Shown here: positions 1,382 through 50,145 of the stretch, one piece after another
How positions within the stretch are numbered: position 1 is the stretch's first letter
How the letters are laid out: each line of letters begins with the position of its first letter
DNA from: Kiritimatiellia bacterium
Lineage (GTDB): Bacteria; Verrucomicrobiota; Kiritimatiellia; RFP12; DVOR01
NCBI GenBank assembly: GCA_036651955.1
Contig: JAVVWU010000005.1
Location: 1,153 to 65,152 of the forward strand
DNA: 64,000 nt
Direction of reading: 5' to 3'
The notes under the pieces: generated by a model
Database searches by the model: none
What the model saw: the letters and a program-made list of their open reading frames with translations, nothing else
What the model was told of the DNA's origin: nothing
Made by a program: the position numbers and the translations under genes

Positions 1382-3631
1382 AAAAAGCTTCTCTTTTTCT
1401 CTGCCTCGCTTTGATGCCGTGGCTTCTCGTCGCACAGGTGTCATTTCGTAACGTGTCGGAACCGAAATTTGACTCGAAAGGTCGTGCGGTTGAGACGTTG
1501 GATTATGATCGTAAAATTGTGGCAACGAATGGGTTGCCGACGGCGGCAGAATATCGTGCGGAGTTGGCAGAACGCGAGCGGATGAAAAAAGTTGCGAAGG
1601 CTTGTGGCCCGTGGTTTGAGTCGATTCAGCTACTGGAGGTTGAACAGAAGAAAGGTGAGGACGCAAAAGGAGATGGCAGTGTCGGTCTGTCCGATAATGT
1701 CAAGCAGACCGGCGGCGGCATTCTTGCCTATGTGGAGGCGATGCGTGTTTTCAATAGTAATACGTCCGAGGGCGGATCAGTCTCGAAGGATGCGAAGCAA
1801 CTGAAAGCGACGTTGGATGAGCTGTTATATCGTCGAGGAGGAGAAGTTATTTGTGGTCCCTCGCGTGGGGTGAGTATCAAATATCCTTTGGAATTGCTCT
1901 TGGTGCGTTATCAAAGCTGGAAGGCGCAGAGTTTGCCGATGGACGAGCTTTATCCGGCGAAGTCTGCTGATTTGTGGCCGGGGAAAGTTCCTGCCGAGGC
2001 GGAACGTGTCACGAAGAAGATTACACTCTACCCGGGTGAAGGCGGCTATCTGAGCACTGGATTATATGTGCCACCGGGTGAAATTGTAACGATTAAATGT
2101 GGTTCTTTATCGGGGAATTTGACGGCGCAAATCGGATGTCACACCGATGCGCTTGAGCCTCAAATTATGGCGCTTGATGACGATGGACAGCCGGATAAAG
2201 AAATCCCAATCAACTTAATGAAGGTTAAGATGGGGTGGCAGCAGATTACGGACAATCGCCCCTTGTGGCGTTGGCCGAATATGGTGCGTCGCTTTTCGAT
2301 TACGAAGAAACGCCAAGAGATCGGTCACGTGCTCGGTGGCATTCTTTGGTTGACGTGGAGCGGTGGACAACGTCCGATGGAGCTTGAAATTAGCGGATGC
2401 GTGCAGATGCCATGGTTCCGCCTTGGACTTGATACGAATGAAGATTGGGAAAAGACCATTTCAAAATATCAAGCGCCGTGGGGCGAACTTCAATGCAAGA
2501 ATATTATTTTTACTGTTGAAGCGAAGCATATGTTGAAGGTTAAAAATATGGTTGCGCTTGCCCAATGGTGGGGGAAGGCTGCGGCAATTATGCATCGCGT
2601 TTCGGGTCGCAGTTTACCGACAGATACAGAAGCAAATAATTATCGTGCGGCCAAAGCGTGAGTGGGGCATTGTCAATCGTAAATTGGTGCAGCTGAATCT
2701 CGATGCGCCGCCTGATAATGAGGAACTTGTTCGCGCCGCGACGGAAGTCAAAAAAGAAGGTCAAGCGGCGGCGGTTGCCGCCAATCGCTATGGCACAACG
2801 ATTGAACAGGAAAATGTTCCGACCGATCCCAGAGCACCGAAAGCGATGCTCGTTGCCTCGCGTGAGAAAGAACCGAAGTGGACTGCCATCCGAGTCGTTG
2901 ATGATACGCAAATTTCGATTGGTGCAGGACACTCGGGATATCCGATTATGTGTATTTTATGGGGTGGCAGTATGATGCACCTTCCTACGCTTCAACGTGT
3001 CGGATCGTGGGGTGCACTTCATGAGATTGGGCATAATATGGGGCAAGGCGAGAATGGAATCTTCGCGCTTCCCGGCAATATCGAAGTCGTTAACAATTTC
3101 TTTGGCACGTGTGTCATGAACTTGTTGAATAAGACGCGCTTCACCCGTATTATGGACGACCAGTGGAACGATATCGCAAGTAAAGCGGCAAAGAATACAC
3201 CCGACTTATGGAAGGTGGCAGGCGGAAATCGATTAGTATTCTATATGACGTTGGCTCATTATTTCGGCGTGGAGAGTGTCGTGAAAATTGCAATGGATCG
3301 AGGTGACAAATATCCGACCGCTGCGATTGCAGATCGTATTTGTTGTGCGTGGTCGAAGGCGGTACAACGTGACCTTACGCCATACTTTGAAATCTGGGGA
3401 CTTCCGATTTCAAAGGCGACATATACTTATACGCAAGATTGGAAGCCGTGGCCGACAGAAGCAGAAAAGGCCGGACTTTTCAATGGCGGTAATACGATGG
3501 ATTACCGTGGAATACCTTTTGATGAAGGTGGCGAAAGTATGCGGTTTAGTGCTTGTCCCGAAGAACCGATTAAGACGCGGCGTCAATTGCGCGCGCAGGA
3601 GCACTTTAAGAAGACGGTGAAAGAGGACTAG
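1378..3631 (+). pseudogene. M60-like (enhancin-type) zinc metallopeptidase, split by a +1 frame change near 2600-2665
   Basis: Fragment 1 (1378-2661, frame 1) has a signal peptide (MKKASLFLCLALMPWLLVAQ) and an M60 N-domain-like sequence (ITLYPGEGGYLSTGLYVPPGEIVTIKCG). Fragment 2 (frame 2, open from 2552 to 3631) carries RVVDDTQISIGAGHSGYPIM and the HEIGH zinc motif at 3020-3034. Together the two fragments make one normal-length M60 protein. Confidence 0.6.
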
Positions 3632-3825: not shown

Positions 3826-4737
3826 CTACGGTTTCGGAGGCGGTGCATTGTTTGTATGTGAGGGCGGTCGGATATTGCCACTGCCTCCGGTACTGTTTCC
3901 CGGATTTTTCCCCGGATTTTGACCGGGGCGGAAGATACCATCAGAGCTATCATCAAATTGTGTGCCATGCCCTTTACCGCCAACGGTTGTCGAGGTTCCG
4001 CGACGCGCTTCATCATTCGCAGACGAACCGAGACTTGGGTTTTGAGAAAGTGCGCCCATGGGGAGCTCTACGATTCGTTTACTCTCAATTGGCTCTTCGT
4101 CTTTCAGCGGTGGCGCCATCCAGAACGTCAGTTCAACGGCAATCGGCAGTGTATTCGTCTTTGCCCAATCATCAATCCAATTAAGTTCTCCATCGGAGGT
4201 TCGAGGTTGATCGGGATCGAGCATTCGGCAGTTAAAGGCAATGACCTTGGGCGAGAGACAGAGTTCGGCGGTATCCTCTTCGGGATTAAACGCTTCAAGT
4301 TGGAGATCCTGTCGCCATGATCGTACGGTAAATCCACCGGGGCTCTTTTCGCCATTGGGTTCGGAAAGATAGGCACGTATTCGATGCGGTACGTTTGAAA
4401 ACTCTGCGTTTTCTCCAATGAGTGCTGGACCGATCTTCGTCCATTCAATGATATCGCGTGCTGATTTTCCTTCTCCGTCATCGGTGAAAACGAAGCCATA
4501 TTTTTCGCCAGATCCCGGCGTATAGGCCGAGCGGAGTGCCGCAGAAAGTTGTTCGAGGAGATAGTCGCTGTGTCCGGTGGCATCAATGACTTCGCGTCCC
4601 GTGGTCCATGCGCGGTTGACACTGTAGAAGGAAGTGAAGAGCATGACGGTGATAAGTCCGAGCAAAGAAAGTGCAATGAGAATTTCAACAAGCGAAAAGC
4701 CCGCCTGCGTAGTACGGTTTGCAGCGGTATGATTCAT
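3826..4737 (-). CDS. Prepilin-type N-terminal cleavage/methylation protein, GspJ-like minor pseudopilin
   Basis: The N-terminus (QAGFSLVEILIALSLLGLITVMLF) is a class III signal. The 303-aa protein ends in a low-complexity G/P/N-rich tail. Its start overlaps the upstream gspI-like stop. Confidence 0.6.
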   Translation of the reverse strand: MNHTAANRTTQAGFSLVEILIALSLLGLITVMLFTSFYSVNRAWTTGREVIDATGHSDYLLEQLSAALRSAYTPGSGEKYGFVFTDDGEGKSARDIIEWTKIGPALIGENAEFSNVPHRIRAYLSEPNGEKSPGGFTVRSWRQDLQLEAFNPEEDTAELCLSPKVIAFNCRMLDPDQPRTSDGELNWIDDWAKTNTLPIAVELTFWMAPPLKDEEPIESKRIVELPMGALSQNPSLGSSANDEARRGTSTTVGGKGHGTQFDDSSDGIFRPGQNPGKNPGNSTGGSGNIRPPSHTNNAPPPKP

Positions 4738-13437: not shown

Positions 13438-15363
13438 TTAAAGATCTTCGTCCTTTTTGAAGCCAAAACTTTTGTCCAGAATCTTTTCGGGGAGCGTTAG
13501 TACGTGCCACTGTGGATTTGAAAAAGGTCCGGTCACATGGATTTGCATCATGAGCGTAGAGAATGGAACGGAAGCCCAACGTGTCAGTTCACCCATTAGC
13601 GTATTACGTTTGAAGATACCGGCAATGACTTTAGCGTTGATATTGTTTTCAGGAATATTATAGGTAACGGGTCCTTCAATCGAGAATAAATCACCTGAGA
13701 GTGAAAAGTCTGGAAGGTTGAAAACGCCATTGGTGATGGTGCCTTGCAAATGTGCCGTAGAGGAATCGGTAATTGCGGAAATGCCCGGAACGTGTTCTGC
13801 CATAATGTCCGTGAATCCGGCGAAGAGAGGTAAGCGCCCAATGAGTCCACCGGCAAGTTTGAGATCACAGTCTCCATTGATAGACGACAAAAAGGTGTCA
13901 TCGGTTCTGCATCTAAAATCAAGTGAGCCGTTGATGGTTGAGTTGGTAAGCGTGTCAATGTTAAACGGTGTGAGAAGATTAGAAAGCGCGGCATCTTGAA
14001 ATTGATTGATGGCGTGAATGTCGACATATTCTGCGGAATGTGGCACGGTAATATCCACGCTTCCTGAAATGACACCACGAGTGGGGAGCGTAGCACGTAG
14101 AGACGTTAATGAGAAAACGCTGTTGGTCATGGCAAGTTCGACTTCTGCTGCGGCTAATGGAATTTTATCGAACATACACGTTTCGATGGAAACGTGTCCT
14201 TTGAGGATGACGTGTTCCGGTGCTTGTTCTGTGAGGAGAGGAATACTTCCTTCAATCGAAACTGCCGGCGGAAGGTTGCTACTGATGGCTGGAATTGTTT
14301 CGGTGAAAGGTAAATCAATTAGGCGCAAACATTCTTCCGGGGAAAGTCCATGACCTTTGGCATTGAATGAAAAACGATCTGCTGGACAGTCAAAACGAAG
14401 TGATCCCGTTGCCGCAACATGCCCATTCCGTCGAACGACAATCGGAGAAATCGTTGTAACGGCATCAAAGATCCCTTTGCAAAGAATCGTGCCTTTGGCT
14501 TCATCAAAAGGAACGCCGCAATAAGTGCCTCCACCATTTGCGATGATGTCGACGCGAAAATCAAAGAGATTTCGCCACTTATCAAATCCGACCACGAATG
14601 CACAATCTCCCCGAGCCGGCGCGTTGAGAATGAAATTATTACTATAGTCTTCAATGATAGGGAAATTAAGTGCCCGATAAACGCCATTGACACGTGTTTG
14701 ATAAATATTACCGAAAATACGCGCCGTGAGTTTGGCATCGTGAAGATCAACAGCAATGGTTGCATCAACAGATTCTTTATCGTTATCAAGAATGCCATGA
14801 AGTTCTTCAAAATGGAGGATGCCGTCAGCGGAGGTTTGAAGAACGCCTGTGAGCTGTTTAACGGAAATATCAAGAACCATTGGACGGTCAAGGCGAAGTG
14901 CAACGTTGTTGAATAAAGGAATTTCTATTTTGGAAAGATCCGGGAAGGGCGCGTGAGGTGTATCGACTTGGTCGATCGGTGCATTTTCTGGCCATTCAAT
15001 CTGTGCTACGTAAAGGTCGCTGATGGAGAGATTCCGCACACGTTCTGCCGCGGTGAGATTCCTTGCGAAAAGGTGTATCTCAAGATTTGCGTGCGAAAAG
15101 GCTACAAGAATCTTATTGTCAGAACTTCTACGAAGATGAAAATCGGTAATAACGAGACCCGTGTGTGGGCGAAATGCAAGATGTCCTACTGTGACTTTTC
15201 CGACAGATTCAGGAAGCACGCGATTGATTCGAGCTTCAACCCAACGCCCCGGAATGCCATAAGCCAATACGCCCATTGCAATAAGAGAAAGCATAACGAG
15301 AATACCAAAGAGCCAAAGGACCCCATGAAGAAAGGTAAAGGAGAGATGAAGAAGGATGCGCAT
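13438..15363 (-). CDS. Large membrane-anchored protein, AsmA/TamB-like (hypothetical)
   Basis: 641 aa with an N-terminal TM anchor followed by a long beta-rich sequence. The beginning (VGKVTVGHLAFRPHTGLVITDFHL) resembles AsmA-family N-termini. The functional call is weak. Confidence 0.4.
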   Translation of the reverse strand: MRILLHLSFTFLHGVLWLFGILVMLSLIAMGVLAYGIPGRWVEARINRVLPESVGKVTVGHLAFRPHTGLVITDFHLRRSSDNKILVAFSHANLEIHLFARNLTAAERVRNLSISDLYVAQIEWPENAPIDQVDTPHAPFPDLSKIEIPLFNNVALRLDRPMVLDISVKQLTGVLQTSADGILHFEELHGILDNDKESVDATIAVDLHDAKLTARIFGNIYQTRVNGVYRALNFPIIEDYSNNFILNAPARGDCAFVVGFDKWRNLFDFRVDIIANGGGTYCGVPFDEAKGTILCKGIFDAVTTISPIVVRRNGHVAATGSLRFDCPADRFSFNAKGHGLSPEECLRLIDLPFTETIPAISSNLPPAVSIEGSIPLLTEQAPEHVILKGHVSIETCMFDKIPLAAAEVELAMTNSVFSLTSLRATLPTRGVISGSVDITVPHSAEYVDIHAINQFQDAALSNLLTPFNIDTLTNSTINGSLDFRCRTDDTFLSSINGDCDLKLAGGLIGRLPLFAGFTDIMAEHVPGISAITDSSTAHLQGTITNGVFNLPDFSLSGDLFSIEGPVTYNIPENNINAKVIAGIFKRNTLMGELTRWASVPFSTLMMQIHVTGPFSNPQWHVLTLPEKILDKSFGFKKDEDL

Positions 15364-39683: not shown

Positions 39684-39740
39684 GTAGAGGTAATGTTTGA
39701 ATGGGACATTTAGAGTCCCCCTTTGAGTAAGGATACGACG

Positions 39741-41036
39741 ATGGCCAAGTTCAGATACAAGGCAGTAGATTCTCAGGGTAAAGAAGTCTTGAGCACGGTT
39801 GAGGCAGATTCTCAAGGTGCTGCGATTGAAAAAATTCGCGCGATGCAATTGACCCCCAAGGCAATTGGCATGGTAAAGGAAGAATCCGCGGATGAAAGCG
39901 TGCCGGCGAAATCTTCGTTTGCTACGAAAGCAAAGAAGCCGAGTGGCGGCTTGGTGTTTTCAACGCCCAAGTTCTTGCGTGGTCGCGTAAAGACAAAAGA
40001 TTTAATGGTTTTGACACGCCAACTTGCAACGTTGGTGGATGCCGGTTTGCCGCTGACGCGTGGATTGCGTGTGCTTCAACGGCAAACGGCGAATGAGTCG
40101 CTCAAAGAAGCATTGACTGGAATGCTTGAAACGGTAGAGACCGGTAATACATTTTCGGAATCGTTGGGAAACTACCCGAAGATTTTCAATCACCTTTACG
40201 TCAATATGGTCAAGGCGGGTGAAGCGGGTGGCGTATTGGAAACCGTTCTCAATCGTCTGGCTGAATTTATGGAGAAGGCGGAAAAGATTAAGAATAAGGT
40301 CAAAGGTGCAATGACCTATCCGGTGGTCGTTCTTTGCGCGGCATTGGGCATTGTAGTCTTTCTGATGCTGGCGGTGATTCCTAAGTTCCAGCAGATCTTC
40401 AATGATTTGATGGGCGGTCAAGGAATGCCGGCATTGACACAGTTTGTAATCAATCTTTCCGGATGGATGCAGAACTACTGGATGGTGATTTTCCCTGCAA
40501 TCTTTGGTTCGATTATTCTGATTAAAATGTTCTTCAAAACGCCCAAGGGGTCGTATATTCAAGATGTCATTGCGCTTCGCGCTCCAGTCTTTGGCTCATT
40601 GACGCAAAAGACGATTGTTGCGCGTTTGACGCGTACACTTGGAACGTTGCTTGCTTCTGGCGTTCCGGTGCTTCAAGCACTTTCGATTGTCAAGGATACC
40701 ACGGGCAATCAAGTGATTAGTAATGCGATTCAGTCTGTTCACGAAAGTGTGAAGGAAGGTGAAGGCATGACGGCACCGCTGGGCGCCTGTGGCGTCTTTC
40801 CTCCGATGGTGGTTTCCATGGTGGAAGTCGGTGAAGAAACGGGCGCACTGTCTGAAATGCTTCTCCGTGTCGCAAACACGTATGACGATGAAGTGGACAA
40901 TGCGGTGGCTTCAATGACTTCTATCATTGAACCGATTATGATTATTTTCCTCGCGGTGATTGTAGGCGGTATCGTAATCGCAATGTTTATGCCACTCATC
41001 ACCATTATTGGAACGATTGGTCAACAGGCTCAATAA
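39741..41036 (+). CDS. gspF: Type II secretion / type IV pilus platform protein (GspF/PilC family)
   Basis: It starts MAKFRYKAVDSQGKEV. Two GspF repeats are present (LTRQLATLVDAGLPLTRGL and LTRTLGTLLASGVPVLQAL) with three TM segments. Confidence 0.85.
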   Translation: MAKFRYKAVDSQGKEVLSTVEADSQGAAIEKIRAMQLTPKAIGMVKEESADESVPAKSSFATKAKKPSGGLVFSTPKFLRGRVKTKDLMVLTRQLATLVDAGLPLTRGLRVLQRQTANESLKEALTGMLETVETGNTFSESLGNYPKIFNHLYVNMVKAGEAGGVLETVLNRLAEFMEKAEKIKNKVKGAMTYPVVVLCAALGIVVFLMLAVIPKFQQIFNDLMGGQGMPALTQFVINLSGWMQNYWMVIFPAIFGSIILIKMFFKTPKGSYIQDVIALRAPVFGSLTQKTIVARLTRTLGTLLASGVPVLQALSIVKDTTGNQVISNAIQSVHESVKEGEGMTAPLGACGVFPPMVVSMVEVGEETGALSEMLLRVANTYDDEVDNAVASMTSIIEPIMIIFLAVIVGGIVIAMFMPLITIIGTIGQQAQ

Positions 41037-41046
41037 GGGCATTTGT

Positions 41047-41760
41047 ATGAAACGCGGATTTACACTGATTGAATTGCTTGTGGTCATTGTCATTATCGGC
41101 ATTCTTGTTTCCGGTGTCTTTATGATGATGCGAGCCGGTGGTGATAAAGCAGGGATTGCGCAAACCGTTACGAAGGTTCACGCGATTGCAACGCTTTTGG
41201 AAGAGTACAAAGCACAGTACGGGAACTATCCGATTGTGACAGATCGTGATGGAAACGGATGTGCGAAGCTTGAATTTTCATTCCTGTGTGATCCGGGAAG
41301 CGATGCGACTGGTTCGTCGCCTGTTGTTTTTGGGCTCTTCTCGCATTTTATCCCACGTGCGACAACAATTGATCAGGAAGCCGAAGATTCCATGAGGGGA
41401 TATTATGAACGGCAGTTTTCGAATCCGGAAAAGGGTTCCATTTGGGAATCCGAGTATACGGCTGGTTCCAGTATGGAAAAGATTGCCAGAGGAGAAGCGG
41501 CAGATCCACGTCTTGCTTTGGTGAATCGCGCCTTTCGGCGACTTAAGAAAGACGGAGTTGTTTCTGCTGGGAGTTCCGTCAATATTGAAACGGGGCGCGA
41601 AACGTACCATGCGACAGCGTCAGATTCTTGGGGACGTGCGTTGATGTATCGAATGGATGGATCGAATGGCGAGATTGTTTCCTATGGTCCTGATGGAAAA
41701 TATGGGACTTCGGATGATATTACGAGTGCCGGTATGGGAAATGATGAAGATGAGGACTGA
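41047..41760 (+). CDS. Prepilin-type protein, GspG-like with a large internal insertion and acidic tail
   Basis: The class III signal is MKRG|FTLIELLVVIVIIGIL. The C-terminal part (DSWGRALMYR...SYGPDGKYGTSDDI) is GspG-like. The protein ends GNDEDED. Confidence 0.7.
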   Translation: MKRGFTLIELLVVIVIIGILVSGVFMMMRAGGDKAGIAQTVTKVHAIATLLEEYKAQYGNYPIVTDRDGNGCAKLEFSFLCDPGSDATGSSPVVFGLFSHFIPRATTIDQEAEDSMRGYYERQFSNPEKGSIWESEYTAGSSMEKIARGEAADPRLALVNRAFRRLKKDGVVSAGSSVNIETGRETYHATASDSWGRALMYRMDGSNGEIVSYGPDGKYGTSDDITSAGMGNDEDED

Positions 41761-41773
41761 AAGGAACGCAACG

Positions 41774-42379
41774 ATGTTGAAGAATAAGAGTTCTCTGTCT
41801 CATGTCCGTGGCTTTACGTTGATTGAAGTCCTCGTGGTGATTGTGATTATTGCCATTCTGGGCGCCTCCTCTTTTGGTGGATATGCGCATTTTATGGAGA
41901 AGGCACGTCAGAAAAACGCCATGGATGTGTGCGAACAAATTAAGACGGCATGGACGAGTTATCATCGAGAGATTGGTTTTTGGCCGGACAAGGTGAGTAA
42001 AAACGGCGTTCATCAAATGGACACTAAAATGTGTGAAATTATTGGGAAAGCTAATTTACTCGATGTCCTCTACATTGATGATAGTCAACAGACTACAGGG
42101 CTGAATCGGAATAAGGACAAAGAATCCGAACTTAAGTATGGTCTATTGGATCCGATTGGACTGAAACGGTTCAAGCGAGGACAGACGGGGAAAAAAGTGA
42201 CAGATCATCTCTATCAATTTGTTCTCGATGTCAATGAGGATGGCATTGTGAATGGGGACGATGGATTGCCTGCAAAAGTTTCCAAGGGGCGTACCCTTCG
42301 TGGTGATATCGTTGTTTGGTGCTGGCCTGAAGACGATGAGGCTAAGGCTGACGGCGAGACGTATGCTCAAAGTTGGTAA
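41774..42379 (+). CDS. Prepilin-type N-terminal cleavage/methylation protein (pseudopilin)
   Basis: The leader is MLKNKSSLSHVRG|FTLIEVLVVIVIIAILG. The protein is 201 aa. Confidence 0.65.
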   Translation: MLKNKSSLSHVRGFTLIEVLVVIVIIAILGASSFGGYAHFMEKARQKNAMDVCEQIKTAWTSYHREIGFWPDKVSKNGVHQMDTKMCEIIGKANLLDVLYIDDSQQTTGLNRNKDKESELKYGLLDPIGLKRFKRGQTGKKVTDHLYQFVLDVNEDGIVNGDDGLPAKVSKGRTLRGDIVVWCWPEDDEAKADGETYAQSW

Positions 42380-42391
42380 AGGAGTGCTCTT

Positions 42392-43015
42392 ATGTTTTCG
42401 TTGCGTTCTAAATCTTCGCATAGTGGCTTTACACTCATTGAACTGTTGGTCGTGATCGCGATTTTGGCGACATTGATTGGTTTAGGTGCCGTAGGAATTT
42501 CAAAGACGATGAAAGGTGCGGATGAAACGCGCCGCAATGCGTTTGCAAAAACGGTCGAATCGGCGCTGATGGCGTACAAGAATGAAACGGGGAGTTATCC
42601 ACTGGCGGCTGATAATGATGCGGATAAAAATGGGCAGATTCATTACGGTTCGGTGAGTAATAATAATGCCGATAAGCCCAATGCAAAAGTTTTGTTAACT
42701 TTATTTGGGCGTAACGAGAGTGGGCGTCGTGAGGCAACGAAGCGCGCTTATATTACGGACAGCTCCGATCTTTATGTTTACAAAGGGAAGCGGATCCGAA
42801 AGCTTGATGAGGCGTTCCAATCGGGCGGAGTTTCCGCTGATGATATGATTGGGTTTAAGATTATGATGGGAAAAACGACGAGTACGAAGTATAAGAAAAT
42901 GAGTGGATCGCACGCATTTTCACCGATTAAAATCTCATTTGATCTTGAATTAGATTCCTATTCGGTTTCCGTTCCAAGTGATGGGCAGTTTAATCAAGTG
43001 ATTCAACTGAATTGA
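42392..43015 (+). CDS. Prepilin-type N-terminal cleavage/methylation protein (pseudopilin)
   Basis: The leader is MFSLRSKSSHSG|FTLIELLVVIAILATLIG. The protein is 207 aa. Confidence 0.65.
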   Translation: MFSLRSKSSHSGFTLIELLVVIAILATLIGLGAVGISKTMKGADETRRNAFAKTVESALMAYKNETGSYPLAADNDADKNGQIHYGSVSNNNADKPNAKVLLTLFGRNESGRREATKRAYITDSSDLYVYKGKRIRKLDEAFQSGGVSADDMIGFKIMMGKTTSTKYKKMSGSHAFSPIKISFDLELDSYSVSVPSDGQFNQVIQLN

Positions 43016-43023
43016 GGTCTGAT

Positions 43024-43824
43024 ATGAAGAAGCGCGGCTTTACATTGATTGAACTCCTGATTGTGATTGGCATCGCAGCGATGTTAATCACAATGGCGTC
43101 AACGGGGTTCTTCGGTGCGTTGCGTCAGGAAAGTGTCACGAAGTCACGGAATCAATTGCGTGATGTCATCCTTTTGGCTCGGCAACAGGCGTGTATTCTG
43201 GGGCAGCCACACGTGGTCGTCTGTTGGAATAGTGATACGTCGGTGGTTGTTGGTAATGATACGCAAAAAGCGAAGCAGGGGAAATTTGCACTCTTTCAAT
43301 ATGTCGGGCAGGTCTGGCGAAAAGGTAATGAGCTGTATGTTCCTTTTGGGCTTCAACGAGATGTATTGTCGACGCTTAAAAAGGGATCGCGCGTGATAAG
43401 TCTTGCAGATGTAGACGCAGACAAATTTGCAAAGTTGACAGATATTATGGCGGATGCGTCTAAGACGGCAGATCAAATTGCAGAGGACAAGAGTTATTCT
43501 GCCACGATTAAATTCGACTATTTGGTCGGAGGCGCGGAGGGCACTTCCAATTGGGAACCGCAAATGTACAAGGTCGCAGATGTGGATGGATCGTTGAGAG
43601 CCGTTACGAAGCGTGGAATCCCGTTGGCTGTTCGTGCTTCTCAAACGTACACGCTTCCTAAACTTTATGCTTTTGGTAGTGATCGTCAAGTCTTTGTCTT
43701 TGCTCCTGATGGACGTGTCACGACCGCAGGGTCGGTCACGGCGCAGCACAGTGTCGCGAAAGGTTCTAAAAACGCCACATTTACGCTCACGGTGGATGAC
43801 AAGGGCTCAGTCACATTGAAATAG
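43024..43824 (+). CDS. Prepilin-type protein, GspH-like by size and position
   Basis: The leader is MKKRG|FTLIELLIVIGIAAMLI. The protein is about 266 aa. A TTG start at 43012 is also possible. Confidence 0.6.
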   Translation: MKKRGFTLIELLIVIGIAAMLITMASTGFFGALRQESVTKSRNQLRDVILLARQQACILGQPHVVVCWNSDTSVVVGNDTQKAKQGKFALFQYVGQVWRKGNELYVPFGLQRDVLSTLKKGSRVISLADVDADKFAKLTDIMADASKTADQIAEDKSYSATIKFDYLVGGAEGTSNWEPQMYKVADVDGSLRAVTKRGIPLAVRASQTYTLPKLYAFGSDRQVFVFAPDGRVTTAGSVTAQHSVAKGSKNATFTLTVDDKGSVTLK

Positions 43825-43833
43825 GAAGCGGTG

Positions 43834-44337
43834 ATGAAACGTTCTTTTCTTTTGAAACTTCGCGATGGCTTCTCTTTGATCGAAGTGAATATGGCGATCT
43901 TTGTCTTGGCTGGCGGTGCGCTTGCGCTGTTGGGACTGTTTCCCCTCGGGTTACGGGAAAGTCTCGCTTCTCGTGGAGAAATGCGTGTCGCTGCCTTTGC
44001 CGAACAGTTTATGGGCGCGGCGCGTATTGCTGTCAACGATCCTTCCGTCGTCGATATCCCGTCACTTCGTAAAGTCATGCAAGACAGTTTCAATTTCAAA
44101 TTGAGTGAGAACGTTGGAAAAAATGACGATCAAAATGCCGAGCAGGATACGAATTCAGACGTGTACTATCGCGGATGGATTTTGAAGACAACCGCATACG
44201 ATTTAGGTAACGCGAGAGAAATGGTTGAGGTCGGAGTACAGGTGACGACAGAAAACTGGAAGCAAAATAAACGCGCGCTTATTTCTGCCCCTGTCTATGC
44301 GGTCAATGTCATTATTGATACGAAGAACGCTCATTGA
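43834..44337 (+). CDS. Prepilin-type protein, GspI-like by position
   Basis: The leader is MKRSFLLKLRDG|FSLIEVNMAIFVLAGGALALLG. The protein is about 167 aa. Confidence 0.55.
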   Translation: MKRSFLLKLRDGFSLIEVNMAIFVLAGGALALLGLFPLGLRESLASRGEMRVAAFAEQFMGAARIAVNDPSVVDIPSLRKVMQDSFNFKLSENVGKNDDQNAEQDTNSDVYYRGWILKTTAYDLGNAREMVEVGVQVTTENWKQNKRALISAPVYAVNVIIDTKNAH

Positions 44338-44356
44338 GTGGGGATGAGGAAGTGAT

Positions 44357-45046
44357 ATGAAACGTTTTAGAAAACATTCCACACATCAAGGGTTCTCATT
44401 GATTGAGATTCTTGTGGCAATGACCATCTTGACGGTGATTGTTTTGATTGTTGCGCGTATTTTTCAACAAACAGGGCTTGCATGGTCTTTGGGATTGCGT
44501 CGCGCAGATGCGCAATCGGTGACGCGTGCCGTATTGGGATCAATTACACGTGATCTCTCAATGATGGTTGACCCGTGTAATTTTGTTTCACCAGATGCCA
44601 CGTTGCAGGAAAAGGCATTAAGTGATTCCATTGGACTATCGGCAGGGAATCCGATTAGTAGCGGGCTTGATTTTTGGATTCTTCGTCCAACGAATGATCC
44701 CGTTGCAACGTTGGAAAAAGCAGAAAAAAGAGAGCTTGTCCATATTGTTTATGCAGGGAGTTCTGGCGTTGTCAATCGTACGGAAACGGTGCTTGATGGC
44801 GCCTCCATTTCGACGGAGTATAAAATCGGGAAAGGAAGCGTTAAGTTTGAAAGCTTAAAGGTAAACTTCCCACAAAAGACATTCTCTTCATTCTATGAAG
44901 ATGAACCGGGTGTCAAAATTACGGTTAAGCCCGAAACGCCGCCCGATATCAATGACTATGAAATTTCTGTGGCTTCATCAGGTCCCGATGGTGAATGGGG
45001 AACGGATGATGATATTCGCCCGTGGGTGAAGGGGGAGGACAAGTAA
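44357..45046 (+). CDS. Prepilin-type protein, GspJ-like by position
   Basis: The leader is MKRFRKHSTHQG|FSLIEILVAMTILTVIVLIV. The protein is 229 aa. Confidence 0.6.
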   Translation: MKRFRKHSTHQGFSLIEILVAMTILTVIVLIVARIFQQTGLAWSLGLRRADAQSVTRAVLGSITRDLSMMVDPCNFVSPDATLQEKALSDSIGLSAGNPISSGLDFWILRPTNDPVATLEKAEKRELVHIVYAGSSGVVNRTETVLDGASISTEYKIGKGSVKFESLKVNFPQKTFSSFYEDEPGVKITVKPETPPDINDYEISVASSGPDGEWGTDDDIRPWVKGEDK

Positions 45047-45562
45047 ATGAAACGTTCAACTCTCTCAATTGCCAATAAAGGTTTTACACTCATTGAATTA
45101 CTCGTTGTAATTGTGATTATCGGAATCCTCATTTCTGCTTTTGCAATCTCAACCGCCGCTGCTCGTGAAAATGCAAAGATTGCTAAGGCGACGGCTGAAA
45201 GTCGTGAATTAGGAAATGCGATTCGTCTCTTTTGTATGACACAATACGATACTGCCATTGATGCCAAGCATGATCCTATGCGCGATTTGGGATTGAGTGA
45301 TGGCTTGAATGATGCCGGCTCTTCAATCGTCAATATGTTGACAAAGCCGAACTCGAATAATGGTAACACCGTTTACTATAATGCTTCTGACAAGATGATT
45401 CGCAAGAATAATCTCTGTGACCCCTGGGGGAATCCCTACAAGATAAGAGTCAAGAAAGTGCTTCCGCAAGATTCGAAGACATCGAACGATTACACCATTA
45501 TTGTCCCCTTTGAAGGGCGTCATCGTGCTCTTGAACCTATGAATGTGCCAGTCGGGAATTAA
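45047..45562 (+). CDS. gspG: GspG-like major pseudopilin
   Basis: The leader is MKRSTLSIANKG|FTLIELLVVIVIIGILI, followed by ARENAKIAKATAESRELGNAIRLF and the GspG hallmark DPWGNPYKIRV. Confidence 0.75.
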   Translation: MKRSTLSIANKGFTLIELLVVIVIIGILISAFAISTAAARENAKIAKATAESRELGNAIRLFCMTQYDTAIDAKHDPMRDLGLSDGLNDAGSSIVNMLTKPNSNNGNTVYYNASDKMIRKNNLCDPWGNPYKIRVKKVLPQDSKTSNDYTIIVPFEGRHRALEPMNVPVGN

Positions 45563-45565
45563 GTT

Positions 45566-48500
45566 ATGAATGCAAACCATTTTTCTAAACGCGGTTCTGC
45601 TCTTTTGATTGTCTTGGGACTTCTGAGTTTCTTGATGATTAGTGCGGTGGCGTTCTCAATCTCTATGCGGACAGAACACGCAGCGGCAGCTTCGTATCGG
45701 CGGAATTTAATGGCACGGGAATTATTGGCGACGGCATTGACAGATGCACGTGCGACGGTTGAATCGGCGATGTTGGATCAAAGCGTAGGATTTGACTTTG
45801 ACAATCCTGCCACGCATACCATTGAAAGACTTGCTCCATTTAAGGACCCTAATGGCGATACTTACGGGCGATTGATTTCGTCGCGGAACTTTAATTCGAC
45901 GACAGGTGGAGCCACGGGGGATCAAGCAGGGAAAAATTTCCCTGCCTATTTGCTGGACGATCAGATGATGCGTCACGTTCCACCTTATATTGCCTCTACC
46001 GTTTACAAAACGCTTGAGGTGATGGACGGAACACGGACAGAGGCTGGCAATTATTATATTGATTGGAAGCCCGATTGGAAGCCGGTCATTGCGAAGATTC
46101 CAGAGGCGGAAATTGAAGTTGGAGGCTCGACCAGCAAAGTTTCAGAATCGGTTATTGGTCGTATGGCATGGGCGGTGATAAATCTTTCGGACTCAATCGA
46201 TATCAATGGTATTGGCTCTTTCTCAAAGTCGCGTGGACTTGGACTTACCGGAAATGAATTTGCATTTGGTTCTAAGGATACGGCTGTTCAAGCGGATGAA
46301 CTCTATCGGCTTGTTAAGTCTTCTGATAGTGTCAATGGAGAAGTCTCTGGTAAGCTTCCTGTCTTTTATTCCAATGCCGATATTTCGTCCTATACGGCGC
46401 AAGCAAAAAGTTCAATACTGGATGTTCGTCCGGATGGGAAATTAGAACCGTTTTCATGGGAGCATGCACTCACGACGGATGGAGATGATTATTACTCACC
46501 TTTTTCCGTGTATAGTTTTTGGCCTTCGACAAATCGTACCGATGAGATCGGGACTTCGTCCTCTGGAGCGTCCTCTAAACTCGCCTGTAATCTGGTGACT
46601 CCCGCGACATTAGCGCCGGGATTATCGCTTGCGAGTAACATCACTACAGAGATCAATAAAATCGTTTCAGAAGGCTCCTCTCTCCCTGAAAATTTCACGC
46701 GCCTTTTAATGGATTATATCGATAAAGATTCTGTTCCTACCGCCTATGATTATGAGGGGCAGCCCATTCAAGATGCTTATGCCAATGCGGCTCCCACGGT
46801 TGAAAATGTGCCGATGATATCTGAAGTCGCTTATTTGCCTGATTATTGGAAGAGTGGCGATACGCCCTTTGTGGATGATCTTCAAAAAAACATTGAGCAG
46901 GCATTTGAGAAAGCGCCACCTGTTGATCTTCCTGCTGATAAGTTCAAACTCCTCAAGACGTATCCGAACGATCTTTCGATTAAGATTCCTGAAGCCAAAT
47001 TAAAGGTTGCGTTACGCAGTTATATGCCCGGCTACAGCGAGAATAAGGAAGGCTATAGTTTCGAGATCAGCGGGCTTGTTGGCGTTTCGGTCTATGCGTG
47101 TTCGGCAGAGGATAAGAAGAAACAGCTTCTTGATAAATCAGCGGTATCAACCGCGATAAAGAAAGTTGACTTGGGAGCGGCATCTGGGAATAGTCTCTTT
47201 ACGCCTTCAGCAGAAAGCGATTTTACGGGTGGAAAGCCTTCGGTGGAGGTTCAATTCAAAAAAGAGTCGATTCCTGTGCTGATGCCTGCACTTGGTTCTG
47301 CTCCGAGTGGTGATGCCACAAAAATGAAGGTTTCGATGACATTCCTTGTGGATGTTTTCTTTAATGCAAAAACAATGAAGTCGGGATCAACAATTCCTGC
47401 GGATCTTGTACCGGCTGCTTCGGTGGACAAGGCAAACTATCCTGTCTCTTTAGAAGACCGCCTCTCTTCCAAACTGTTGCCACTTGATAAACAGTATTTT
47501 CGTATCACACGTGCGGTGACGGCAGAATTTTCGTTGACGTGGAAGATAAAAGAAACTCCGGGGACCGATGGTAAGCCCACGACGTATACGGGAACGCTTG
47601 TATTTGATTCCGCCAATGATGGTGATTTGAAAGTTGAACTTGCAAAGGATGAAACTCTTGAGCTTGGAGGACAACAGTTATTGCCATCGAATACAAACGG
47701 TGTCCCGTCCTATATGATGCAATCGACTACGGATGGTGCATGGCAGACGATTGATCCGCGCTATAATTGGTTGTCACCAATGGTGGGAACAGCGGACACC
47801 GTGGGAAGTTATGGATTATCAGACCAAGGATATACCGCCTTTTCTTCCCCGCATTGGGTTTTCATCAATGGGGAAAGTTTGCCTTCTGCTGATAATTTAT
47901 CGGAAACTGCCGAAGCTTATGAAAATGCACATTCGGGATTGATGCCATTCTCATTGGGACTTAAAGTTGCAGATGTCCGTTATGGGTATAACAACACCGA
48001 AAAGTTGTTGCTTCCCTCCGAAGTTGGTTTTCTCCCTGTGCCACTTGCCGATAATGTATGGAATCCGAATGTTAATGCGTATCGAACGTATTCCTTTGCA
48101 AATTATTTCAATACTGTTGCGAAGTTTTCCTTCTTCCGAACAATTCCGCTTGTTGATTTTTCCGATTCGGCATTTTCCGGAGGAAGCTCCTTGGATTATG
48201 AAAAGTGTTCGCGTCTCTGTCGTCTTTTTCAGGGCTTCAGCGGGAAAGGATATCCAGAAGAACATCGTTCAATTATGAGTGCGTTTGCAGGGCAAGATGA
48301 CTATCTTCTTTGTCAACGGTTGCGTCAGTTCGCGATGATGGGTATTCAGTCTTCCATTAAAAACGCAGCTTATGTTTCTTATCAGCGATTGGCAGTGGCA
48401 AAGGATAAATTCCGTATTACAAACGAAATGCTTGATGCGATTCCTAACATTACAGATGTGAAGGAGGACGATTTAACGACTGCTAAGTATGATTTGTTTA

Positions 48501-48907
48501 TCTGCAATTATCTCTTCCCATTGCCCGAAAATAATGATCTTGCGAGTGCGCGGAAATGGGACGGCCGTACGCGTCCAAAGACGGTGAACTTTTTGACCGA
48601 ATTGCCTGATAGCGGTGCCACTGAGACCCTTGCGACAAAGATGACGAACTATAACGATAAGGAAGGTGCGTCTTCGGGTAAACTTGGGCAAAATGACATT
48701 ACGACACTGTTGGCAACGGCAGCGGAATGCTTTGGAGATCGTCAACAGCTTTTCCTCTATCTTCTGCGTGCAGATGCTATCGCTTACAATTCTGGACGTG
48801 ATCTTGCACAGCACAAGCCACTGTCTACCGCACGTGCTGTTGCATTGATTTGGCGCGATGCATATGGCAAACTTCCCGATCGTATCATTTACTATCAAGT
48901 GCTCTAA
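45566..48907 (+). CDS. Giant (1113 aa) GspK-like minor pseudopilin / putative filament tip protein
   Basis: The N-terminus (KRGSALLIVLGLLSFLMISAVAFSISMRTEHAAAASYRRN) looks like GspK: a pilin-like helix without Glu+5. The segment SDSIDINGIG resembles the GspK xxLNLN motif. About 850 further residues have no motif I recognise. Confidence 0.55.
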   Translation: MNANHFSKRGSALLIVLGLLSFLMISAVAFSISMRTEHAAAASYRRNLMARELLATALTDARATVESAMLDQSVGFDFDNPATHTIERLAPFKDPNGDTYGRLISSRNFNSTTGGATGDQAGKNFPAYLLDDQMMRHVPPYIASTVYKTLEVMDGTRTEAGNYYIDWKPDWKPVIAKIPEAEIEVGGSTSKVSESVIGRMAWAVINLSDSIDINGIGSFSKSRGLGLTGNEFAFGSKDTAVQADELYRLVKSSDSVNGEVSGKLPVFYSNADISSYTAQAKSSILDVRPDGKLEPFSWEHALTTDGDDYYSPFSVYSFWPSTNRTDEIGTSSSGASSKLACNLVTPATLAPGLSLASNITTEINKIVSEGSSLPENFTRLLMDYIDKDSVPTAYDYEGQPIQDAYANAAPTVENVPMISEVAYLPDYWKSGDTPFVDDLQKNIEQAFEKAPPVDLPADKFKLLKTYPNDLSIKIPEAKLKVALRSYMPGYSENKEGYSFEISGLVGVSVYACSAEDKKKQLLDKSAVSTAIKKVDLGAASGNSLFTPSAESDFTGGKPSVEVQFKKESIPVLMPALGSAPSGDATKMKVSMTFLVDVFFNAKTMKSGSTIPADLVPAASVDKANYPVSLEDRLSSKLLPLDKQYFRITRAVTAEFSLTWKIKETPGTDGKPTTYTGTLVFDSANDGDLKVELAKDETLELGGQQLLPSNTNGVPSYMMQSTTDGAWQTIDPRYNWLSPMVGTADTVGSYGLSDQGYTAFSSPHWVFINGESLPSADNLSETAEAYENAHSGLMPFSLGLKVADVRYGYNNTEKLLLPSEVGFLPVPLADNVWNPNVNAYRTYSFANYFNTVAKFSFFRTIPLVDFSDSAFSGGSSLDYEKCSRLCRLFQGFSGKGYPEEHRSIMSAFAGQDDYLLCQRLRQFAMMGIQSSIKNAAYVSYQRLAVAKDKFRITNEMLDAIPNITDVKEDDLTTAKYDLFICNYLFPLPENNDLASARKWDGRTRPKTVNFLTELPDSGATETLATKMTNYNDKEGASSGKLGQNDITTLLATAAECFGDRQQLFLYLLRADAIAYNSGRDLAQHKPLSTARAVALIWRDAYGKLPDRIIYYQVL

Positions 48908-48959
48908 TACACGCGGAAGTTTGCCGCTGTCAGATGAAAAGGTTGAGAGTTTATAATTT

Positions 48960-49367
48960 ATGGAAAATGTAACAGAACCGTTGAACGATGAAGCGGAAGA
49001 GCTTGATTTACGCTTTGTCAGTGAAACGCAGATTGCGTGCGCCGGATTTGATTTGGTGGATCTGCTGAATTGCGATGAGGGCGTCGGACCTGAACTGTAT
49101 CATCGATTGCATTTGACCGCTCAAAAAGAGCTGTCGCTTGATTTTGATTATACGGTCTTTGATGAAATCGAGGATGAGAAATTCTATATGTTGACGTTCC
49201 CAACGGGGACGGATTTTGCAGATTTCAGCATCGTACAAGTGCTTTCGGTTGATGAAATTTCAGAAAAGTGCTTTAATGACTTAATGATAGATGACTCTGA
49301 GATGTCCTGTGACGGCAATTGTGATGCTTGTCCTCAGGATTGTATCGGTAAGCATCCAGTAGAATGA
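48960..49367 (+). CDS. Small strongly acidic hypothetical protein with a C-terminal Cys cluster
   Basis: 135 aa, very rich in Asp and Glu. It ends MSCDGNCDACPQDCIGKHPVE. It lies directly after the pseudopilin operon. Confidence 0.45.
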   Translation: MENVTEPLNDEAEELDLRFVSETQIACAGFDLVDLLNCDEGVGPELYHRLHLTAQKELSLDFDYTVFDEIEDEKFYMLTFPTGTDFADFSIVQVLSVDEISEKCFNDLMIDDSEMSCDGNCDACPQDCIGKHPVE

Positions 49368-49392
49368 CATTGACACATTAAAAAGGAACCTT

Positions 49393-50145
49393 ATGCGTAC
49401 CAAAATTGTTGCAGGTAACTGGAAGATGAACAAAACGCCCGCAGAAACTGCGGCTTTGATTGCGGATATTCGGAAAGAAACGAATGATGGTAACAATGGC
49501 GTTGAAGTCGTTGTATGTGTCCCGTTCGTTGACATTCCAGCTGCTGCGGAAGCGCTTAAAGGCTCTTCGATTGCTCTTGGTGCACAGAATATGCACTGGA
49601 AAGAGTCCGGCGCATATACCGGTGAAATCTCCGCCGCGATGTTGAAAGATCTCGGCGTCAGCTATGTCATTTTAGGTCACAGTGAACGTCGTCAGTACTT
49701 CGCTGAAACGGATGAGACGGTAAATCTTAAGCTCAAGGCTGCGCTTGCTGCAAATTTAATCCCGATCGTTTGTGTGGGTGAGACACTTCAAGAGCGTGAA
49801 GACGGCAAGATGCAAGAGGTGATCGTTCGTCAGGTCACTGCAGCGTTGGCAGGATGCCAAAATGAGTTTGTCAAGATTGTCATTGCCTATGAACCTGTTT
49901 GGGCGATTGGTACGGGGAAGACGGCGACGAGTACGCAAGCACAGGAAGTCCATGCACTGATTCGTGCAACGCTTGCGAAGATGAACGCTCTCACTGCGGA
50001 TAAGGTGCGCATTCAGTATGGCGGATCAATGAAGCCTAATAATGCCGCAGAACTTATGTCCAAACCGGATATTGATGGCGGTTTGATTGGCGGCGCGGCA
50101 TTGATGGCAGATTCGTTTGCCGAGATTGTTGCCGCAGGAAAGTAA
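49393..50145 (+). CDS. tpiA: Triosephosphate isomerase
   Basis: 250 aa with VAGNWKMNK, ILGHSERR, AYEPVWAIGTGKTA and YGGSMKP. Confidence 0.95.
   Translation: MRTKIVAGNWKMNKTPAETAALIADIRKETNDGNNGVEVVVCVPFVDIPAAAEALKGSSIALGAQNMHWKESGAYTGEISAAMLKDLGVSYVILGHSERRQYFAETDETVNLKLKAALAANLIPIVCVGETLQEREDGKMQEVIVRQVTAALAGCQNEFVKIVIAYEPVWAIGTGKTATSTQAQEVHALIRATLAKMNALTADKVRIQYGGSMKPNNAAELMSKPDIDGGLIGGAALMADSFAEIVAAGK

Follow-up and report, generated by a model that had tools for sequence, protein, structure and literature searches.

A 64,000-nucleotide stretch of contig JAVVWU010000005.1 from a Kiritimatiellia bacterium (hereafter the window) contains a gene of unusual length at 45566–48907 (+). Its open reading frame (ORF) runs from ATG to TAA, and its 1113-aa product, which we call the giant protein, is probably a minor pseudopilin of the K class (the class of GspK, XcpX and PilX), in a type IV filament system that resembles a type II secretion system (T2SS) and belongs to a gut Kiritimatiellia bacterium. 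The place and time at which a type IV filament starts are decided by its GspK-class subunit, which occupies the working end of the filament. We read the giant protein as an apical priming subunit because it combines a K-type leader, a position in the K slot of a pilin operon, a GspK-type N-terminal domain and a conserved C-terminal strand. The gene boundaries (stop codon included) and the assignment draw on homologues, on the layout of a predicted structure and on hhalign comparison with GspK. An initial annotation, made from the letters of the DNA, had described a GspK-like protein roughly three times the usual size; with GspK homologues collected for comparison at 286–393 aa, the giant protein is ∼3.4 times larger.

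The giant ORF is a single real gene

An ORF of this length might be an artefact in which two or more genes were joined by a sequencing or assembly error, an event that the initial annotation had named as fatal to its reading. Only the unusual length and the missing family matches for the extra part speak for such an origin, and we give it practically no chance of being correct. A word-indexed search of 5.8 billion proteins returned ∼80 homologue clusters of 1070–1190 aa, 30–46% identical to the giant protein and collinear with it over 99–100% of the query; one of these full-length clusters is annotated only as ‘hypothetical protein, Kiritimatiellae bacterium’. Members of the wider family (1093 clusters, described below) are mostly 900–1200 aa long. 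Contigs of an independent strain, assembled from the metagenomes of four other samples, span 45000–49400 at 99.5% identity, with 21 shared substitutions and neither an indel nor a joint; the changes inside the giant ORF are 10 synonymous and 4 non-synonymous, and the frame is intact. In addition, the two ends of the protein are its best-conserved parts, and an AlphaFold2 (AF2) model of the single chain, computed from a 48-sequence alignment, has a predicted local distance difference test score (pLDDT) of 78.5 and a predicted template modelling score (pTM) of 0.76. On the strength of the full-length homologues and the indel-free independent assemblies we reject the fusion artefact: the giant ORF is a real single gene.

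A K-type leader in the K slot of a pilin operon

The N-terminus of the giant protein is MNANHFSKRG↓SALLIVLGLLSFLMISAVAF: Gly precedes the presumed cleavage site (–1), Ser follows it (+1), and position +5 is Ile rather than Glu. Residues 1–72 (45566–45781, +) comprise a basic leader (residues 1–10), a presumed prepilin-peptidase site between G10 and S11, a hydrophobic α1N helix and an amphipathic α1C segment. Within the leader, KRG↓SALLIVL, residues G10–L17 are invariant in an alignment of 48 homologues, Ile15 (+5) among them. Each of the seven ORFs upstream (41008 to 45562) instead reads G↓F(T/S)LIE with Glu at +5, and all seven match Pfam N_methyl; two also match Pfam T2SSG, weakly to clearly. 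The GspK-type N-terminus without Glu at +5 that the initial annotation had recognised is therefore set off from every pilin encoded before it. PilK/GspK homologues invariably lack Glu5 and are found at the filament apex (PMC13533445).

The operon consists, in order, of gspF, the seven Glu5-bearing prepilin genes and the giant gene as the last pilin gene. The giant gene thereby occupies the K slot, after GspH-, GspI- and GspJ-like genes, with the H, I and J assignments resting on sub-threshold matches. This order is kept in two compared loci, L001 and L002, and in 38 further loci. In L001, which carries the most distant full-length homologue (30% identity), gspF and seven pilin genes are followed by the giant gene, a small gene and tpiA. 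In L002, from a member of the wider family with BLAST similarity at the N-terminus only, the giant gene again comes after gspF and seven pilin-like genes. The 38 loci represent species-level genomes with enough flanking sequence, and in all of them regular-expression searches detected prepilin genes just upstream on the same strand, three to seven per locus. A complete giant ORF could be read in 37 loci; it encodes 900–1284 aa with the core GSALLIVLG (variants GSALLVVLG and GAALIIVLG), usually preceded by Arg or Lys. All but one of these 37 end in an alternating aromatic strand of the form R(V/I)(I/L)(Y/F)(Y/F)xQ(L/F), of the RVIYYQVLP or RVLFFRQLD type.

The N-terminal domain is related to GspK by profile comparison

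The GspK/XcpX family is covered by the Pfam models T2SSK_1st (PF21687) and T2SSK (PF03934) and by NCBIfam NF037980; chain K of 3CI0 and chain X of 5VTM are the structures that we take to be GspK/XcpX. Only two NCBIfam families were matched by the giant protein, T2SS_GspK (NF037980, E 0.046) and Verru_Chthon cassette protein A (E 0.049), both far below threshold. When 44 diverse family members were scanned, T2SS_GspK was matched by 32 (best E 3.6e-5, again sub-threshold) and Verru_Chthon_A by 8, with no match to any other family.

For profile–profile comparison we used a GspK profile built as a 38-sequence alignment seeded with E. coli K-12 GspK. Whole family profiles aligned to it with hhalign over the first ∼70 residues only (86–89% probability), and the helix region aligned to GspK 1–70 with 86–93% probability (E 4e-7 to 5e-6). 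Sub-alignments gave two further local matches beyond the helix, both collinear with GspK: GRMAWAVINLSDSIDIN aligned to GspK G.v.w.i.D...FNLN, and LLMDYIDKDSVP...PTVENVPMISE to GspK DWIDxD...PPY..aN....SEL. The first match corresponds to residues 198–217, GRMAWAVINLSDSIDINGIG (46157–46216, +), a β-strand followed by an N-x5-D-x-N motif, and the second to residues 365–421 (46658–46828, +), where a helix with LLMDYIDKDSVP precedes PTVENVPMISE. The SIDINGIG motif, which the initial annotation had called GspK-like and placed near residue 215, lies at residues 210–217 and falls on the GspK FNLN motif. Residues N206, D212 and N214, invariant in the 48-homologue alignment, align together with the invariant D383 and D386 to the conserved GspK residues D99, N105, N107, D150 and D153.

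After removal of stretches 76–194 and 221–359, which are poorly conserved, the profile aligned to GspK 1–159/190 with 97.6–97.9% probability (E 3e-12 to 5e-13); independently re-aligned excised cores reached 98.1% (E 1.1e-13) over 134 columns. A helix-free slice (195–220 plus 360–425) aligned to GspK 89–190 with 90% probability, E 1e-6 and a score of 43.4. The best score among 120 random pairs of equally long collinear slices, run as a null test, was 19.4 (E 0.02). The match was also specific: compared with single E. coli K-12 proteins, the excised core gave 88% probability and E 3e-6 for GspK and E 1e-3 for GspJ, while for GspG, H, I, C, L and M the E value was at least 0.065. A GspC-, GspL- or GspM-like platform protein was accordingly rejected as a candidate. 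Because the profile–profile match extends past the helix, withstands the null test and is specific to GspK, we conclude that at the level of profiles the N-terminal domain of the giant protein is homologous to the N-terminal domain of GspK (residues 1–190). Membership in GspK thus holds for this domain by profile–profile homology and not at curated thresholds. Family searches with hidden Markov models, which the initial annotation had proposed, reached T2SS_GspK at sub-threshold level. Its notion of a GspK-like apical pseudopilin agrees with the K slot, the leader, the matches in 32 of the 44 members and the alignment to GspK 1–190.

Several results weigh against placing the giant protein in the K class. 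Pfam gave nothing for it at E ≤ 1, and nothing for the 44 diverse members or the excised cores. No match passes the curated cut-off of PF21687/PF03934 or NF037980; that of the giant protein to NF037980 scores 13.2 bits over residues 9–72 against a cut-off of 130. Sequence searches of the PDB with the single sequence, the full profile and the excised-core profile found no GspK chain and nothing relevant. The C-terminal half of GspK went undetected (hhalign of 800–1113 against GspK 175–327, E at least 0.02). Foldseek with the full AF2 model against the PDB had no GspK/XcpX in its best 50 matches, and with a separate AF2 model of residues 800–1113 (pLDDT 76) it had no GspK among the best 50, the weak matches being to COMMD (the best, E 0.026) and cystatin structures. 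The slices that gave the best hhalign scores were picked after the local matches had been seen, and here the null test argues against an artefact. That the predicted hairpin and the terminal strands would form one sheet on α1 is read from secondary structure and conservation, not from model coordinates. Finally, the 64-kb window has no secretin, ATPase or prepilin peptidase gene that would complete the machine.

Some of these results would also fit a protein that is no pilin at all. In that case a Sec signal peptide cut at A27-V28-A29↓F30 would release a mature, soluble periplasmic or secreted protein of ∼1080 residues, an accessory or cargo protein merely co-transcribed with the pilin genes. 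The N-terminus does offer the parts of such a peptide, with KR as the n-region, a hydrophobic stretch of 16 residues and an AxA motif; moreover, the GspK family thresholds are unmet and Foldseek finds no pilin fold. We nevertheless consider a secreted cargo or accessory protein very improbable. Residues 10–17 are invariant and residues 1–40 the most conserved of the protein, whereas Sec signal peptides are not so conserved. The AF2 helix 18–72 continues uninterrupted across the supposed cleavage site, GspK homology runs past this helix to residue ∼190, and the match is specific to GspK over other single-pass T2SS proteins. A K-class minor pseudopilin remains our preferred reading of the giant protein.

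The extra residues are predicted to be inserted into a split pilin domain

In the AF2 model the N-terminal helix (18–72) is followed by loops and short elements (73–171) and by a long hairpin (172–206) that leads into the N-x5-D-x-N motif. A low-confidence region (218–297) and helices at 354–385, which include DYIDKD, precede the β-rich part of the protein, residues 417–730 (46814–47755, +). This part is the least conserved and is modelled as long strands of 17–20 residues, with pLDDT mostly 65–92. Residues 731–1055 (47756–48730, +) combine conserved loops (DPRYNW, GYN..LLLPSEVGFLP and PEEHR) containing invariant residues with a region modelled as helical (helices between 780 and 1055). The last segment, 1056–1113 (48731–48904, +), comprises three predicted β-strands (1061–1074, 1087–1097 and 1106–1112), the final one, RIIYYQVL, being conserved across the superfamily.

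Column conservation is 0.82 for residues 1–40, 0.74 for 201–240 and 0.79–0.82 for 1041–1113, with the β-rich middle at 0.32–0.50. Since the last ∼70 residues are conserved like the N-terminus, the extra ∼800 residues are best described, on the model, as three inserts (74–197, 218–364 and 422–1055) inside a split pilin domain rather than as a C-terminal tail. In GspK an α-domain of ∼180 residues is inserted mid-sheet (PMC13533445); the largest insert of the giant protein is predicted to take its topological place. The initial annotation, in which some 850 residues followed an N-terminal GspK, has to be revised accordingly. Its picture of a β-rich extension applies to 417–730 and not to the helical 780–1055, and where it described a composition high in Ser, Thr, Asp and Asn, the enrichment is moderate and concerns Ser, Thr and Asp.

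Landmarks are kept throughout the insert at ∼20% identity (D383/Y384, P410–M417, P488, D613/P616, F645, D730–N734 and G818/E819), and the C-terminal QQLF...AVAL.WRD is also kept across members at this distance. Because these landmarks persist, the alignments indicate that the whole architecture is old and fixed, with no recent domain shuffling.

We found no convincing structural relative for the extension, on which the initial annotation had suggested running Foldseek. The full model gave weak matches in the PDB to leukocidin/haemolysin-type and arrestin-type β-sandwiches, with E ∼1e-3, TM ∼0.2 (at most 0.22) and a root-mean-square deviation of 18–30 Å. We regard both kinds of match as generic β-sandwich noise and reject a relationship to toxins. 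Against BFVD the full model gave no convincing match. Internal repeats were sought in the insert and none was found.

The initial annotation had proposed that the extension could be an adhesin, a glycan-binding or an enzymatic module displayed at the tip. On a surface-exposed pilus, such extra residues would in function amount to a PilX–PilY1 fusion with which the cell binds or processes polysaccharide or mucin. Several features are in keeping with such a module. The AF2 layout puts the insert at the most distal position of the filament, the β-rich 417–730 is the most variable region, as expected of an exposed surface, and CpaL provides a K-analogue that carries an adhesin domain (PMC13533445). 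The lineage to which the host belongs feeds on glycans, and genes for a member of glycoside hydrolase family 16 (GH16), a GH20 enzyme and an M60-like peptidase are present in the window. Yet no carbohydrate-binding module (CBM), lectin, enzyme or known adhesin domain was found in residues 300–1113 by Pfam, NCBIfam, PDB profiles or Foldseek against PDB and BFVD, and no catalytic motif was recognised. Unlike modular adhesins or swappable CBM and lectin modules, the insert keeps P488, D613, P616, F645, D730–N734 and G818–E819 at ∼20% identity with no domain swapping. The major subunits resemble GspG of the T2SS, a pseudopilin that normally stays periplasmic. The argument from a neighbourhood rich in glycan-degrading enzymes proved weak: the 64 kb are mostly housekeeping, and the only glycan-type genes seen, one GH16, one GH20 and one M60-like peptidase, are not adjacent to the operon. 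With no test in its favour, an adhesive or enzymatic head appears rather unlikely to us, and we keep to a K-class subunit whose head would be a structural or contact module.

A proposed role at the filament tip

A C-terminal β-strand, which GspK and CpaL provide in cis and PilC/PilY1 in trans, makes the K sheet complete and licenses recognition by the I–J dimer (PMC13533445). A corresponding course of events can be sketched for the giant protein. It would be synthesised with a prepilin-type leader, presumably cleaved after Gly10, and held in the inner membrane by the hydrophobic α1N helix. Because it has no Glu5, it could serve only as the first, apical subunit. There it would form a tip complex with the GspI-like (43831–44337) and GspJ-like (44357–45046) products, and this complex would prime the G-like pilins to polymerise on the GspF platform. 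The pilin core itself would be split between the N-terminal helix with its β-hairpin (1–217) and the last three β-strands (1056–1113), with the three inserts together crowning the filament as a large conserved head. Closure of the sheet would fall to the extreme C-terminal strand acting in cis, as it does in GspK and CpaL; the head would for this reason have to fold before the closing strands, and hence before the tip complex forms.

The fixed architecture of the head suggests a structural or contact module, and our guess is that it engages the secretin, cargo or a surface rather than acting as an enzyme. The variable β-rich part would be its most exposed region. Going further, we tentatively suggest that these proteins may make up an undescribed superfamily of ∼1000-residue K-class tip pilins in Kiritimatiellia and in metagenome-assembled genomes (MAGs) labelled ‘Lentisphaeraceae’ or ‘Verrucomicrobia’, whose ∼90-kDa head, lacking relatives of solved fold, might give the filament a function beyond that of ordinary GspK. 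If so, the head could be a cargo-selecting or secretin-engaging plug, suited to the export of very large sulfatase and glycosidase repertoires. Alternatively, a surface-exposed binding head would turn a T2SS-like machine into an adhesive pilus.

Family size, distribution and significance

When 1.84 billion representatives were scanned in full with the family profile in HMMER, 1093 clusters (at 50% identity) matched with E ≤ 1e-3, and for 669 of them the value was E ≤ 1e-10. Nearly all members are 850–1220 aa long and match in several stretches, at the N-terminus, around residue 200 and at the C-terminus. Among contigs representing one genome per species, 234 genomes encode relatives. Their titles are almost all Kiritimatiellae/Kiritimatiellia, ‘Lentisphaeraceae’ and ‘Verrucomicrobia’ MAGs from guts, rumen and sludge; the ‘Lentisphaeraceae’ genomes are Candidatus Spyradenecus in the NCBI taxonomy. 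In its phylogenetic spread, which the initial annotation had marked for study, the long form is almost restricted to Kiritimatiellia from gut and environmental sources. We also noted four operon-bearing contigs (L011, L071, L074 and L084) filed under MAGs of Agathobacter rectalis, Limosilactobacillus gorillae, Barnesiella intestinihominis and Christensenella sp.; they are most likely mis-binned.

In the literature on the Verru_Chthon cassette and on Kiritimatiella secretion we found no description of the giant protein or its family. None of the 44 members scanned has a Pfam domain, and the few source annotations seen for these ∼1,100 clusters say hypothetical. With the family unannotated, public databases leave the T2SS and pilus systems of Kiritimatiellia apparently without a K subunit. 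In this family the subunit has grown to between three and four times the usual size, with the extra mass inside the pilin fold and at the site of the GspK α-domain, whose own role is still unclear. Kiritimatiellia specialise in breaking down sulfated glycans and mucin, both in guts and in sediments, and they rely on protein export; given this lifestyle, structural and functional studies have a concrete target in the head domain. The family is also a natural test of the recent model in which addition of a β-strand licenses tip complexes.

Other genes of the operon and the window

The first gene of the operon (39723–41036, +) encodes a GspF/PilC-type inner-membrane platform protein, with Pfam T2SSF at E 3.8e-66 and NCBIfam scores of 396.7 bits for GspF and 396.9 bits for PilC, both just below their cut-offs. 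A long GspG-like pseudopilin follows (41008–41760, +; 250 aa as listed; N_methyl E 7e-9, T2SSG 1.1e-7, TIGR01710 gspG 4.8e-16, below cut-off). The next two genes encode G-like prepilin-type proteins with Glu5, one at 41657–42379 (+; RGFTLIEVL; N_methyl E 3.6e-8) and one at 42392–43015 (+; SGFTLIELL; N_methyl E 1.1e-7). As listed, the first two pilin ORFs overlap by ∼100 nt and have their prepilin motifs at residues 17 and 51. Judged from the sequence, their true starts are probably internal, that of the first being the Met before KRGFTLIELL. At ∼235 aa when mature, the first pilin is unusually long for a GspG-like subunit.

The GspH-like minor pseudopilin is encoded at 43012–43824 (+) and matches Pfam GspH (E 6e-4), TIGR01708 gspH (3.7e-9) and Verru_Chthon cassette protein D (4.4e-7), all below cut-off. 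The GspI/PilV-like assignment of 43831–44337 (+; DGFSLIEV) is tentative, based on sub-cut-off matches to TIGR02523 PilV (E 5e-4) and Verru_Chthon cassette protein B (8e-4). Equally tentative is the GspJ/PilW-like assignment of 44357–45046 (+; QGFSLIEIL), with Verru_Chthon cassette protein C at E 5.6e-8 and gspJ at 0.036, below cut-off. Directly 5′ of the giant gene lies a fourth G-like pseudopilin gene (45047–45562, +; 171 aa; N_methyl E 1.7e-8, TIGR01710 gspG 1.9e-11, below cut-off). Directly 3′ of it, an acidic 135-aa ORF (48960–49367, +) ends in CDGNCDACPQDC. Its product matched no Pfam or NCBIfam family and is 38% identical (E 8e-25) to that of the gene in the same position in L001 (13219–13833). 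With its position conserved, it may be an operon partner.

Elsewhere in the window, the M60-like (enhancin-type, mucin-targeting) peptidase appears to be split over two overlapping ORFs, 1354–2661 and 2552–3631 (+). M60-like_N lies in the first, together with Peptidase_M60 up to position 75, and the second continues with positions 80–275; the split may reflect a frameshift, a pseudogene or an assembly error. An orphan prepilin-type gene at 3826–4737 (–), far from the pilin operon, encodes 303 aa with AGFSLVEIL, including Glu5, and a Gly/Asn/Pro-rich C-terminal tail. The 641-aa product of 13438–15363 (–) matched no Pfam family at E ≤ 0.001.

Comparison with known systems

The giant protein is closest in kind to GspK/XcpX. 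In both, H-, I- and J-like genes come before the gene, which ends the series of pilin genes, and the leader has Gly at –1 and lacks Glu5. The N-terminal motifs α1, G.v.w.i.D..FNLN, DWIDxD and N....SEL are collinear (98%, E 1e-13), and a large insert interrupts the pilin sheet, with C-terminal strands in cis (as predicted for the giant protein). The differences are equally clear: the giant protein is 3.4 times longer and has three inserts that add up to ∼800 residues in place of one α-domain of ∼180, the C-terminal half of GspK cannot be detected in it, and GspK is matched neither at curated thresholds nor in Foldseek.

Verru_Chthon cassette protein A (TIGR02600, 1296 positions) is likewise giant, with a K-like N-terminus, pilin-like genes before it and a distribution in bacteria of the Planctomycetes–Verrucomicrobia–Chlamydiae (PVC) group. 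The genes starting at 43012, 43831, 44357 and 45566 weakly match proteins D, B, C and A of this cassette, in that order. However, the matches to protein A lie far below the cut-off and cover only the first ∼50 residues (11.5 bits against 332.3 for the giant protein, residues 10–58 only; best among the 44 relatives, E 2.7e-4). Protein A, which has no assigned function, is a parallel but different family, the closest catalogued look-alike in architecture.

Large inserts before a C-terminal strand acting in cis are known in the K class from CpaL (∼600 aa) and from the PilK homologues of Thermus and V. cholerae (PMC13533445). CpaL/TadG of the Tad (type IVc) system and the competence-pilus K homologues of Thermus and V. 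cholerae share with the predicted layout of the giant protein a pilin-like domain in the K position, a large tip module and a C-terminal strand that closes the sheet in cis and licenses assembly (PMC13533445; ComZ, PMC6561018). No sequence relation between them and the giant protein was found, and we regard CpaL and the insert-bearing competence-pilus proteins as its functional analogues. The place of the insert differs: in CpaL and the competence proteins it follows the sheet and precedes the last donor strand, whereas in the giant protein it is predicted to lie mid-sheet with three strands after it, as in GspK. The giant protein is also larger, 1113 aa against ∼600 aa for CpaL.

PilY1/PilC of type IVa pili and MshQ resemble the giant protein in size (about 1000–1500 aa), in their presumed place at the tip and in having a big module mounted before polymerisation. 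Neither Pfam nor NCBIfam matched the PilY1/PilC β-propeller and no propeller was among the best 50 Foldseek matches; with no PilY1/PilC domain found, we rejected homology to PilY1. As an analogy for how the head of the giant protein would be mounted on the tip, PilY1/PilC is nevertheless reasonable. PilY1/PilC are separate proteins that have no pilin N-terminus and contribute to PilK/PilX no more than a C-terminal strand in trans, whereas the giant protein, as the K subunit, itself contains the module.

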